From NCBI RefSeq assembly GCF_008000775.2, contig NZ_CP042905.2, positions 3,600,001-3,632,000 on the forward strand: DNA of 32,000 nt. The letters run 5' to 3'. The stretch comes from Promethearchaeum syntrophicum (lineage in GTDB: Archaea; Asgardarchaeota; Lokiarchaeia; Sigyniarchaeales; Promethearchaeaceae). Position 1 is the stretch's first letter. Each line of letters begins with the position of its first letter. Shown piece by piece: positions 2,101 through 23,724 of the stretch. The position numbers were made by a program, and so were the translations under genes. A model generated the notes under the pieces. It did not search any database, was not told the origin of the DNA, and saw nothing but the letters and a program-made list of their open reading frames with translations.

Positions 2101-3369
2101 TTATTCTTCAGCTGACGAGTTCTTTTTGTCGAGGTTCAATTTTTTGTAATTGAACGATAGAAACGGAATGAGAATAGCAAAGGTTGCTAATCCTAACATG
2201 AGCATCGTTGATAATAATGAATTTAATCCAAATATCCCTAAATGATCTAAACTATACCCTATCAACAATGCCATCCCCATATAGACCATATTCAATAAAA
2301 AGTTGATTATGGATAAGACTGTAGCGCGCCGATCCGAAGGGATATGATCATTTGCGTATTTATCGAGAATAGTCCAAGTATAATCTCGCGTGAAGAATAA
2401 GATAAAAAGGAAACCTAAACTAATATATTGAGTGATAATTACCATTAAGAAGAACATTACTCCAAAAATCACTGTGATCCCATAAAACGAGCCTTTTTCA
2501 CCAAATTTCTTCTCAATTTTATAGCGTAAAGGGGCGAAAAATCCAATCACTCCACGTGTAAAAGCAAATATGATCCCGAAATAAATAACCGGAATATTGA
2601 TTTCTACTAAGTATAATTGCTCCATTAAATTAACGAATAACATTGGAATCGTTAAGACTAATACCCAAAATATGGTAATAAATCGTACTATCTTATTTTT
2701 CCATACAAATCCTAAAGATTTGACAATTAGTTTGTATTGAGCGGCAATAGTTTTCGAACTTTCGGAAGGAATTGGTTCTTTCATGGTGAACACAATTGCA
2801 CTCGCAACAATCAAGGCAATTCCATGAGCGTAGAACGGTAATGTAATATGAATAGTATATAAAACGGACCCCAAAATTGCTGAAAGGATTAGCGCTACTG
2901 CAGTTATCACTTCTCTTTTTCCGGTGTATTTCAGATAGTCTTGTTCTTTATTCATTTGTTTTAAGGAATCATAAAATAATGCATTAACAGCCCCTGAAAT
3001 AAAAGAATCTCCAAATCCCATTAATATCATAGTAATTACAAACCCATTGAATGTAGAAAATACACCCATAAGGACCAAACTTAATCCCCATAAAAACATC
3101 CCTAACCCCGTAGAAAGCTTTCTACCAAAGATATCTGCAAATGCGCCACTCGGAATATCACTCAGAAATACGATTCCCGAGACTATGGCTTCTAATACAC
3201 CCATTTCAAAAAAATTTAAACCTCGTTCTTGGAAATAGATGATGCCGACAGGCATGGAGATCCATAAATTCCGGAAAAACATCGCGATGAAATATTTCGT
3301 TATGTTTTTTTCCATGGGATGTTTATTCATTTTTATACTCGTGCTAACAATTTCATCTGTATTGGTCAT
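2101..3369 (-). CDS. MFS-type transporter
   Basis: 422 aa with about 12 hydrophobic segments. A motif-A-like loop GAFADIFGRKLS follows the second TM segment. Confidence 0.75.
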   Translation of the reverse strand: MTNTDEIVSTSIKMNKHPMEKNITKYFIAMFFRNLWISMPVGIIYFQERGLNFFEMGVLEAIVSGIVFLSDIPSGAFADIFGRKLSTGLGMFLWGLSLVLMGVFSTFNGFVITMILMGFGDSFISGAVNALFYDSLKQMNKEQDYLKYTGKREVITAVALILSAILGSVLYTIHITLPFYAHGIALIVASAIVFTMKEPIPSESSKTIAAQYKLIVKSLGFVWKNKIVRFITIFWVLVLTIPMLFVNLMEQLYLVEINIPVIYFGIIFAFTRGVIGFFAPLRYKIEKKFGEKGSFYGITVIFGVMFFLMVIITQYISLGFLFILFFTRDYTWTILDKYANDHIPSDRRATVLSIINFLLNMVYMGMALLIGYSLDHLGIFGLNSLLSTMLMLGLATFAILIPFLSFNYKKLNLDKKNSSAEE

Positions 3370-14990: not shown

Positions 14991-15134
14991 ATGAGAAGTG
15001 TATATATGCTTTTTGAGAATGCAAAAACAGTCGTAATTTGGCAATTGGGTGTTTTATGGGGAGTAAAATTTATTGAAGACGAAATCGTTAAAGGGTTAAA
15101 CAAAAAATATCAAGATATGATTGTTTTAGGATAA
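14991..15134 (+). pseudogene. Truncated paralogous copy of the C-terminus of the 12302..12739 gene
   Basis: 47-codon ORF MRSVYMLFENAKTVVIWQLGVLWGVKFIEDEIVKGLNKKYQDMIVLG-stop, versus ...VAIWQLGVEWGEKFLEENVVKNLNKKYHDLLVLGQKRVFSIRF. A TAA replaces the CAA (Gln) codon. After it the frame still reads KRVFCIQF-stop. Confidence 0.6.
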
Positions 15135-15213
15135 AAAAGGGTGTTCTGTATCCAATTTTAAGATTATCAAAATTTTCAAGATTTAAAAAATATCGATGAA
15201 TAATCATTTTTTT

Positions 15214-16131
15214 TCATTTCATTATGTTGGATTCAAGAATAGAAAAATATAAATCAATAATTCCTTTCCATTCATTTTCTGTTAATTCCCGTACTTCTAA
15301 ACCATTCTTCGGTACATAGGTAACGATGATCATCGATGGCTTATATTGTACATAAGGTTTGAATTCTAACTCGATATCCACTTCTTTATTATATTTCTTC
15401 TTGGACAGGTGTCCATTTTTTATCCATGTATCTAATTCCAGTCCAACTCCTCCAAAAGAAGTTGCACAAATGAGTTTTATTTCCATAGCAGGGTATTTTG
15501 CGGGATTAACTAGGATATTGGTAGGTCCCATTTGAATCATGCTTTCCCTTTCGGTTATTGTTATCTCTATTCTAATTTTTTCGGGATCATAGTATTTCTT
15601 TATTAATTCTGCAGTAAGGATCGTTTGTTCGATGTTATGAATAAATATGGTTCCAATTTTTCGTTTTTCTGGCTCTTTTTCATAGAAAGTAATATATCCG
15701 ATCCCTATTTCCCCTAGACAATAAAGGATGGAAATGAGAATGATATGGATTTGAAAAACATTATTAATCACTAATACTAATGGAACTACCAATATCGCAA
15801 TTCCTCCAAGAAAAATTAGCACCAGATTGAAAATTATTTTAAATTTTTTCGGTTTTTCATGATATTCAATAGATGGATATTGATTATACAAATCAATAAA
15901 TTCCTCTAGAGTAATTATCAGTTTGCGCTGATGAGGACTGAAGATTTTTATTGGAATGCCCAAACTCATTCCCATCGCAACTAAAATACCAAAATTCATG
16001 AATCCACCAAAATATTCCCCAAAGAAATACAACAGTATCGGACCAATTGTTATGATAATCAATCCACTTATCACAATTTGAATGGTCTTTTGCTTTCCAT
16101 TCCATGGTTGAAACTTGTTTTCAATTGACAT
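15214..16131 (-). CDS. Hypothetical membrane protein (4 TM segments plus ~150-aa C-terminal soluble domain)
   Basis: 305-aa ATG ORF with clear hydrophobic segments (IQIVISGLIIITIGPILLYFF, FNLVLIFLGGIAILVVPLVLVI and others). No recognised domain. Confidence 0.55.
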   Translation of the reverse strand: MSIENKFQPWNGKQKTIQIVISGLIIITIGPILLYFFGEYFGGFMNFGILVAMGMSLGIPIKIFSPHQRKLIITLEEFIDLYNQYPSIEYHEKPKKFKIIFNLVLIFLGGIAILVVPLVLVINNVFQIHIILISILYCLGEIGIGYITFYEKEPEKRKIGTIFIHNIEQTILTAELIKKYYDPEKIRIEITITERESMIQMGPTNILVNPAKYPAMEIKLICATSFGGVGLELDTWIKNGHLSKKKYNKEVDIELEFKPYVQYKPSMIIVTYVPKNGLEVRELTENEWKGIIDLYFSILESNIMK

Positions 16132-16705
16132 ACTACAATTTCATTTACGATAGATATATAAAATGTGTGATTTCAAAGTAGGAAATTCTTGGATTAAAAA
16201 GAAACCCTAATTTTTCTATACTTAATCAAAACCTTGTAATAAAACATTTTAAATCTAATATTTCAAGGTTTAAGGAGTGAGAATTCCCTCTCCGACATAA
16301 TTCCATTTTATATTAAAGATTAAATGGAAAAATATAATGCACTCATCTACTTTGTTGATTTCACTACAAAGTATTAACAAAACCCTCCTAAAGAAGAGAA
16401 AGCTGTCAATTTTATCCATATCTGAAATGTATGAATTGATTTTCCAATAATTATTAATTAAGTAAAAATGACAAACGTAAAGCATTTGGTGAAGCTATAA
16501 TTTTGAAAAATTCCGATATAGAAAACATCTTTTAATATGGTTTTGAAAGCTGTAATGATTGACCCCATACCTAAGATTTGCTTCAATCTGTTATCTGAAA
16601 CACGAGGAGATGGTCCTAGGGGCAAAATTGCCCAGAGAGCGATGAAAAATGCAGAATTTGTTCGTTCATAATTCTCTTATTTAACTCTATTGGAATAATC
16701 TTTAA

Positions 16706-22803: not shown

Positions 22804-23108
22804 AAAATTCAAATCTTAACTTTTTTTTCTACACTTGACTTAATTTTTTAAGATTTTAAGGTTTTAGATTTCTTTTTTTCATTGTATCTCTGTTTTATGC
22901 TAATTTCCAACCTTTTGTAGTCATTGAAAATTGAAATTCTTCTTTTAGATCTGCGATTAATTTTTTATCTCTAGCTGTAAACCAAAAACCTAAACTTAAT
23001 TTAACTTTAAAAAAAAATGACCCTTCCCCGTTAATCCATTGAATGAAAATTGATTCATTTGCATCATAATATAAGTATTTTAAAATGATTTTTTATAATT
23101 CATTATAT

Positions 23109-23612
23109 ATGGAATCATCAGATCGTGGTTTAAAAATAGGAACTATTGCTCCCAATTTCAGTTCCACTAATATTTCAGATGATAAGATTTTTGATCTCCA
23201 TGATGAAGTAAAAAAGTACAGAGGCGTCCTCATAAATTTCATTCGTGGTAATTTTTGAAGCCATTGAAATAAATTTTTTACTCGGCTGAAAAAGAAATTC
23301 GAAAAATTCAATGAATTGGATGTTAAACTCGTCGCGATTGCATCTGACACCACGCGAGAACTAAAAAAAATGAGCGAAAAATATGCTATGGTATATATCG
23401 CCGACTTAAATACAAAAGAAATTATTCGTGCGTATGATGCAGAGAAAATTGATAGCACTAAGAAACCGGAAAAAAACCTTAAAATAAAAGATGTGCTTCC
23501 TCTAAGTTATCTACTGAATAATAGGGCAGAAATTGTATGGAGATTTGTAGGTACGAAAGAAAAACGGCCTCCAAATAGAAAGATCTTCGCAGCTATAAAA
23601 AAATATCTATAA
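23109..23612 (+). CDS. Prx-like2 / AhpC-TSA thioredoxin-fold protein with two in-frame TGA codons at the CxxC positions (candidate UxxU selenoprotein, SelL-like)
   Basis: One frame from ATG 23109 to TAA 23610-23612 reads MESSDRGLKIGTIAPNF...YRGVLINFIRGNF-TGA(23256)-SH-TGA(23265)-NKFFTRLKKKFEKFNELDVKLVAIASD... This is the redoxin pattern G..AP.F ... F.RG.WCPxCn ... vaIS.D. The ORF track reports only the part after the TGAs (23316..23612, TTG start). An alternative start is ATG 23085. Confidence 0.75.
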
Positions 23613-23622
23613 TAATGAACAC

Positions 23623-23679
23623 AAATTTATCCGTAAACAAAAAATGGGATAAATTTGAATTTAGTGCAACCTAAAGTTC
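23623..23679 (+). other. Two adjacent hairpins in the 3' UTR of the TGA-containing gene (SECIS candidates or terminator)
   Basis: HP1: perfect 10-bp stem AAATTTATCC (23623-32) / GGATAAATTT (23647-56) with the A-rich 14-nt loop GTAAACAAAAAATG. HP2: GAATTTAG (23657-64) / CTAAAGTTC (23671-79) with a bulged G and loop TGCAAC. A T-run follows. Confidence 0.3.
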
Positions 23680-23724
23680 ATCCTTTTTTAAAATTCAATA
23701 AAAAATTGACCTGTTCAACGATAT

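Follow-up and report, generated by a model that had tools for sequence, protein, structure and literature searches.

The window analysed here (the whole 32,000-nucleotide stretch, positions 3,600,001 to 3,632,000 of contig NZ_CP042905.2 of Promethearchaeum syntrophicum MK-D1; G+C content about 29-37%) carries a prxL gene on its forward strand, at 23109..23612. The coding sequence consists of 167 codons and a TAA stop at 23610-12, and specifies a thioredoxin-fold Prx-like oxidoreductase whose predicted redox box is U-S-H-U. The initial annotation had proposed a frame intact from ATG 23109 apart from two TGA codons. This was confirmed: TGA 23256-58 and TGA 23265-67 are the only interruptions upstream of the TAA, and the frame reads ...FIRGNF-U-SH-U-NKFF.... 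The first UGA (23256..23258), read here as Sec, occupies the N-terminal, attacking position of a CxxC-type redox box and aligns with the first Cys of ResA. The second (23265..23267), also read as Sec, occupies the resolving position and aligns with the second ResA Cys.

As had been noticed at the outset, ORF calling misses the gene; GenBank mis-calls it as well. The ORF list was described exactly: it holds only a 98-aa TTG-initiated fragment (23316..23612, forward strand) and a 121-aa antisense ORF (23093..23458, reverse strand). The fragment corresponds to the GenBank model DSAG12_03864, "hypothetical protein" (P0002, name taken from nr), and is an annotation artefact lying over the C-terminal 60% of prxL. 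The antisense ORF lies opposite a conserved, selected coding frame, gave no Pfam match at E≤1, and is considered spurious. The surrounding genes lie on the other strand: upstream a DAO-type FAD oxidoreductase, downstream a split TPP enzyme, and in addition a GNAT acetyltransferase. None of them hints at the function of prxL. Further TGA-interrupted genes were sought across the window and none was convincing. A 305-aa ORF on the reverse strand (15214..16131) ends at a TGA beyond which the frame stays open for 41 codons (15088-16206), and this was judged to be due to chance.

A promoter-like block of 27 nt (CATCATAATATAAGTATTTTAAAATGA, 23062..23088, forward strand) precedes the gene. It is almost invariant among relatives, being nearly identical in the window and in loci L001, L002, L004, L006 and L035, with two copies in L002; it is a putative promoter. 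The block contains an A/T box, ATTTTAAAA, at 23077-23085. Its location about 28 nt 5′ of ATG 23109 suggests a leaderless or very-short-leader mRNA, and judging from this spacing the prxL transcript is probably leaderless, with its 5′ end near ATG 23109. An upstream ATG at 23085, used as the start in a 2024 supplement discussed below, is out of frame in most relatives, where it lies 22 nt from the conserved ATG instead of 24 nt. Thus ATG 23109, the start proposed in the initial annotation, is the conserved and better one, and the N-terminus of the published model is probably 8 codons too long.

Assignment of the product to the Prx-like/AhpC-TSA redoxins was borne out by Pfam. With U written as C, the 167-aa protein matched AhpC-TSA (PF00578, 55.2 bits, E 8.8e-15) and Redoxin (PF08534, 41.6 bits, E 1.4e-10), both scores exceeding the curated cut-offs and the matches spanning residues 10-153. 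By sequence, the closest solved structures are ResA thiol-disulfide oxidoreductases (PDB 4nmu, 1st9 and others, E 1e-7). Alignment with these Cys-containing homologues superimposes RGNF-c-sh-c-NKFF on WGTW-C-xx-C-xKE, so both TGAs do fall on the CxxC cysteines, as first claimed. NF-U-SH-U also fits the XxxX column of the published PrxL family file. The window protein contains no Cys at all; the L002, L003 and L006 proteins have one, in a KDC(L/I)P stretch. In typical peroxiredoxins (AhpC/BCP) the peroxidatic Cys is part of a T/S-x-x-C motif. Here a Gly (R-G-N-F-U) takes the place of Thr or Ser three residues ahead of the first U, which points to a thioredoxin-like CxxC type and not to a typical peroxiredoxin.

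Protein searches returned only C-terminal fragments of 98-101 aa and one full-length call with W at both positions. Homologous contigs were consequently read through in frame, and a codon alignment of 8 distinct sequences was built. TGA was found at both codons in all first-round loci (about 10-11), with the N-terminal half conserved, and in the codon alignment both columns are TGA in every row, with no frameshifts. Overall, both TGAs were recovered from at least 12 close loci, which come from independent metagenomes, and from 3 more distant ones. Whether orthologues keep TGA can thus be answered clearly: all close loci do, as do L011, L012 and L040. These three more distant UxxU relatives show 34-37% identity, and comprise two Promethearchaeota MAG loci (L011 and L012, 36%, with UEHU and UQHU motifs) and a metagenomic one (L040, 34%, UPYU); L035, also metagenomic, is 85% identical and has both TGAs. 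The first position is TGA in all homologous loci. At the second, the whole subfamily as well as L011, L012 and L040 have TGA, and other PrxL clades have TGY (Cys). Values of dN/dS against the window were 0.17-0.53 for the part upstream of the first TGA and 0.10-0.22 for the part downstream of the second.

Several features of the homologous loci are worth recording. Synonymous divergence from relatives is about three-fold lower in the 49 codons before the first UGA (23109-23255, dS 0.15-0.37) than in 23268-23609 (0.75-1.10), and codons 41-54 show almost no nucleotide change. Local RNA folding gave no significant structure that would account for this low-dS stretch. A SECIS or recoding hairpin within the coding sequence, at the UGAs, was considered and rejected: folds of 75-90 nt were no better than those of shuffled sequences (z -1.7 to +0.7) and were inconsistent between relatives. 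L002, a 48.6-kb metagenome contig, carries tandem UxxU prxL paralogues (2061-2609 and 2797-3369) of UPYU and UTHU types, each with its own promoter-like block, SECIS-like element and U-run; the tandem paralogue keeps both TGAs, and the window has a single copy. In L056, about 90 nt into the match (FRGIUUDYURNH), TGA also replaces the Trp codon before the redox box, giving UUxxU, which reflects either a third Sec or a TGG-to-TGA error. L009 (1000-1100) has two tandem copies of the first 19 codons of prxL (…YMESSEERGLKIGTIAPNFSYMESSEERGLKIGTIAPNFS…), a duplication that is either genuine or an assembly artefact. The stop context also varies, with TGA then TAA in eleven close relatives (L001-L010, L035) and TAA TAA in the window (23610-23618). 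The terminal TGA of the relatives, which lies 5 nt away from their SECIS-like element, presumably acts as a simple stop, in which case the residue encoded there is dispensable. Finally, the same peptide pattern caught homologues at 23-26% identity with a UxxC motif (AUGFC, WUSWC) in Acidobacteria/Terriglobales (L027, L028, L034) and Longimicrobiales (L033); these are bacterial Prx-like selenoproteins.

The 3′UTR of prxL contains a candidate SECIS folded as a three-way junction (23615..23681, forward strand), which begins 3 nt after the stop. Helix P1 pairs 23615-20 with 23676-81 (AUGRAC/GUYCAU), and its R-Y pair varies among members between A-U, G-U and G-C. A single A (23621, J12) separates P1 from P2, a helix of 10-11 bp pairing 23622-32 with 23647-57 and capped by the 14-nt loop GUAAACAAAAAAUG at 23633-46. 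J23 (AA 23658-59) and the preceding G23657, which also closes P2, together read GAA immediately 3′ of that stem. The P3 hairpin has 5 bp, 23660-64 with 23671-75, and a UGCAAC loop. Right after P1 comes a U-run (TTTTTT, 23684..23689), found at the same place in all relatives. In keeping with what is generally known of archaeal termination, it is a probable oligo-T transcription terminator.

When each relative was folded independently, the MFE structures showed the identical three-way-junction architecture. Identity between loci is 81-95% over the 70 nt 3′ of the stop, whereas third codon positions agree at 62-75%. The close subfamily, taken by itself, gave no statistically significant covariation. 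A covariance model of the window-type element (R2) was used to fit a broader alignment of 13 sequences, which therefore leans towards the model, and in which 91.5% of cells pair, compensatory changes occur in 15 of the 22 pairs, no shuffle out of 500 reaches the observed pairing and slid controls stay at or below 46%. R2 found full-length elements directly after the stop in L040 (36.7 bits, E ~1e-6), L011 (25.4 bits, E ~1e-3) and L012 (16.4 bits, E ~0.15). Its top matches at the 3′ end of PrxL_U, a prxL paralogue in MK-D1, and of the relatives of PrxL_U were marginal (15-16 bits, E ~0.04), and none of the canonical lokiSECIS loci was matched. In all, the window-type element was seen in the window, L001-L012, L035, L040 and L061-L063.

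Two other MK-D1 loci have unusual 3′ ends. PrxL_U (L061, 1555-1696) has lost its stop codon, with TAC where L062 and L063 have TAG, so that its frame stays open across the SECIS-like element of the gene and two T-runs until it meets a TGA some 30 codons further on. Should transcription stop at the T-run, the PrxL_U mRNA would have no stop codon. The 3′UTR of FrhD (L060, 487-590) likewise folds into a three-way junction, in which both inner hairpins are flanked by AUGA...GA (AUGA-A-UUUGAG-CUACAAAC-UUUGAG-C-GA and AUGA-GUCCU-GCA-AGGAU-GA). It was matched neither by R2 nor by R1, the covariance model of the canonical elements.

R1 was built from 33 distinct canonical PrxL lokiSECIS elements. In these, AUGA precedes a 9-bp stem whose A-rich loop has 11 nt and ends in AG; after the 9-bp return strand come GAC, a small G-C hairpin and the lower stem that closes the element. 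The canonical stem covaries strongly, both sides changing in 7 of 9 pairs and none of 500 shuffles reaching the observed score. The canonical element was present at all PrxL loci outside the window clade (18 of 20 Asgard genome loci, 17 of 19 metagenome loci). Its own members, used as positive controls, scored 58-60 bits with R1. No match was obtained at 23613-23690, the best score in the window being 11.1 bits at another position, nor in the close subfamily, L011, L012, L040 or the MK-D1 FrhD and PrxL_U loci. A second canonical lokiSECIS was detected by R1 in L018 (1128-1169, 40.8 bits), about 130 nt upstream of the PrxL open frame, which suggests that another selenoprotein gene ends there.

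The window-type element nevertheless resembles the lokiSECIS in several respects. It lies directly after the stop (3 nt from TAA) and has an A-rich apical loop and a conserved stem. With the lokiSECIS, or eSECIS-like type I element, it has in common a 5′ AUGR, a long stem (10-11 bp here) under the A-rich loop, a GA 3′ of this stem, a small hairpin with a YGCA-type loop, a closing lower helix, a U-run and the three-helix layout. In both types the loop starts with G-N-A-A-A-C, and the window-type element is homologous in layout to the canonical PrxL SECIS. The AUGA_GA quartet, however, is absent from it: the 5′ side of the stem is occupied by ACAC, which parts it from the AUGR, the AUGA lies 4 nt away, and only the GA 3′ of the stem is present. 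The AUGA of the window is AUGG in 9 of 12 close-subfamily loci and in L040, the fourth base pairing with the downstream Y, and AUGR as a whole forms Watson-Crick pairs with a downstream YCAU. The sheared G.A/A.G pairs of the lokiSECIS are replaced by a C-G pair and an A.A opposition. The loops differ too, with 14 nt ending in UG instead of 11 nt ending in AG.

A kink-turn at the base of P2 or around P3, or a k-junction, was rejected since hand placement did not fit all members; L040 lacks any 5′ GA, and the window lacks a GA after P3. Compared to the euryarchaeal SECIS (a GAA_A bulge and three G-C pairs), most relatives have GAA before P3 and (G)A after it, but P3 of the window is A/U-rich and the lower stem is interrupted by P2. 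Rfam scans, at the gathering threshold and permissive, found no SECIS family and only chance snoRNA-like and miRNA-like matches. A loose type I eSECIS pattern (NNGAN, 7-15 bp, 8-20 nt, NGANN/NAANN) had many matches in the 600 nt downstream, which were rejected as chance in A/T-rich DNA; nearly all lie in the convergent downstream gene and none on the P2 hairpin.

Taken together, the position, layout and conservation of 23615-23681 make a functional SECIS the most likely reading of this element, one that we hold with reasonable though not strong confidence. A more specific and clearly tentative proposal is that in this Lokiarchaeial prxL clade a SECIS without the kink-turn AUGA_GA quartet, built instead on a Watson-Crick-closed three-way junction, may direct the insertion of one or two Sec. 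The clade covers two of the three MK-D1 prxL genes, and all that its junction retains is the A-rich G-N-A-A-A-C loop, the small YGCA hairpin and, 3′ of the stem, the GA. If the quartet-less element is functional, the Asgard Sec machinery would not need a eukaryote-like quartet, and MK-D1 would offer a culturable system in which to learn what this machinery recognizes instead. As the clade element departs from the lokiSECIS behind the "archaeal-to-eukaryotic SECIS transition" argument, it would be a useful test case for the features that the Asgard machinery reads.

The reading of prxL as a gene with two Sec codons has to be weighed against simpler ones. Since GenBank and gene callers annotate only a 98-aa fragment, the locus might be a pseudogene, that is, an ordinary CxxC redoxin with two nonsense mutations. 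Against this, at least 15 independent loci, the most distant at 34% protein identity, have both TGAs at matching codons and show no other lesions; purifying selection acts both upstream and downstream of them, and the promoter-like block and the 3′UTR structure are conserved as well. Two chance nonsense mutations are thus very improbable, as originally argued. A variant genetic code, in which every TGA of the genome would mean Trp or Gly, finds some apparent support in the metagenomic relative P0001, which was deposited with W at both positions. However, the DNA of P0001 has TGA at both sites, and the TGA=Trp call also runs W through a homologous TGA stop. Moreover, TGA terminates 11 of the 26 long ORFs in the window, including those at 12737-39, 12241-43 and 27793-95, all three correctly described in the initial annotation as ordinary stops, and the two prxL positions align with catalytic Cys, not with Trp or Gly. 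The original preference for local recoding over a variant code is therefore upheld, and such a code is even less probable than a pseudogene. Both explanations can be regarded as effectively excluded.

One could also imagine two small genes, encoding a 49-aa peptide and a 98-aa protein starting at TTG 23316, and in several metagenomes gene callers do produce just these two. Each on its own falls short of a full thioredoxin fold, the matches to Pfam and ResA continue across the TGAs without a break (residues 10-115), and codons 54-69, between the second TGA and the TTG, are conserved as coding sequence; we rate this arrangement no higher than the pseudogene. Slightly more credible, but still improbable, is that the UGAs are read by near-cognate tRNAs (as Cys or Trp) or mostly cause termination, with little or no diselenide protein made and the 3′UTR element serving only as a terminator or stability structure. 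The lack of a canonical SECIS core in the element is in its favour. On the other side, the selenoproteome of this organism has been published and includes a Sec-containing SelD, and the loop GNAAAC and the GA 3′ of the stem are SECIS-like and conserved far beyond the needs of a terminator. In addition, TGA and not TGY is strictly kept at both sites over a long divergence, which implies selection for Sec.

The best explanation, to which we assign a probability of roughly 0.9, is that prxL of MK-D1 encodes an Asgard Prx-like thiol/selenol oxidoreductase in which both redox-box positions are Sec, recoded with the help of one 3′UTR element. Actual Sec insertion, diselenide chemistry and the role of the element as a SECIS are what we infer. 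In this double-Sec model the mRNA probably starts near ATG 23109 without a leader. The two UGAs, 9 nt apart, would be decoded by EFSec and Sec-tRNA-Sec, as the literature on the family leads one to expect. A single structured element (23615-23681) would direct recoding of both, as in SelL, and transcription would then end at the following U-run. The mature protein is expected to alternate between bis-selenol and intramolecular diselenide forms, a cycle demonstrated for the eukaryotic SelL, and would thereby act as a reductant of very low potential, fitting for a strict anaerobe. Neither tRNA-Sec nor any gene of the Sec machinery was found within the window, and the presence of this machinery in MK-D1 rests on the literature. 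The claim that the Lokiarchaeial lineage uses selenocysteine agrees with the 2024 Asgard selenoproteome (PMC11227280), in which GCA_008000775 is listed with Sec-containing SelD, FrhA, FrhD and HdrA and with two more PrxL. We independently recovered a fragment of the MK-D1 FrhD gene, with two in-frame TGAs.

The double-Sec prxL of MK-D1 is already known, and only its database annotation is wrong. Mariotti et al. 2016 (PMC4989117) described five selenoprotein families in Lokiarchaeota, among them PrxL. In PrxL.1 Sec replaces both redox-box Cys; a diselenide was suggested, SelL was compared, and Loki PrxL was noted to have no additional Cys outside the redox box. Prx-like selenoproteins were subsequently found in 43% of Sec-using Asgard genomes (PMC11227280). 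The supplementary FASTA of that study (file 79) has many X..X entries, and one, Lokiarchaeia_GCA_008000775_U_3 (175 aa), is identical to the window translation from ATG 23085. UxxU is also the majority form among the Asgard PrxL loci that we retrieved (13 of 20 genome loci; 15 of the 17 metagenome loci with a readable motif). The suggestion that an archaeal UxxU redoxin would be rare or novel therefore does not hold: family and gene were published in 2016 and 2024, and the present result is a correct rediscovery. Yet in the reference annotation of MK-D1, the only Asgard archaeon in long-term culture, the gene remains the truncated DSAG12_03864 "hypothetical protein", and metagenomic members of the family are split by gene callers or mistranslated, for example with W at both Sec sites. 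In P0001, from a 794-bp contig (L001, 209-691), both Sec codons and the terminal TGA were called Trp, an artefact of a TGA=Trp table. Such calls can hide selenoproteins or pose as full-length Cys-free homologues.

Comparison with characterized systems helps to place the protein. The CxxC of ResA/TlpA aligns with the UxxU of the window protein, and the G..AP.F and vvAi..D blocks are common to both. ResA, however, is Cys-based and a membrane-anchored, extracytoplasmic cytochrome c maturation factor, whereas the window protein is predicted to use Sec and has no evident signal or anchor segment. Prokaryotic UxxU variants of a distant Prx-like family, Prx-like 2, have also been described from marine bacteria of the GOS metagenome (Zhang and Gladyshev 2008, PMC2398784). 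Being bacterial, they presumably have in-frame SECIS hairpins; by contrast, no significant local hairpin surrounds the UGAs of the window. SelL (Shchedrina et al. 2007, cited by PMC4989117 and PMC2398784) is a selenoprotein of eukaryotes with a UxxU motif and a Prx-like2 fold. It resembles the window protein in its thioredoxin fold, in relying on one SECIS, a candidate one in the window, for two UGAs three codons apart, and in the expected diselenide; protein and SECIS are eukaryotic in the case of SelL, and the best sequence matches of the window protein are to ResA and AhpC-TSA, not to the SelP-N/SelL region. The link to SelL is thus an analogy, based on motif and superfamily. The closest counterparts are Lokiarchaeota PrxL.1 and the Asgard Prx-like selenoprotein family, with which the window protein shares the Prx-like thioredoxin fold, Sec at both redox positions and, as noted for Loki PrxL, the lack of any other Cys; here too the gene stands alone, and a structured element comes right after its stop. 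Unlike published PrxL, its 3′UTR element is not the described lokiSECIS and is not recognized by the 33-element covariance model, and this non-canonical architecture of the putative SECIS in the window PrxL clade may be the only new point.
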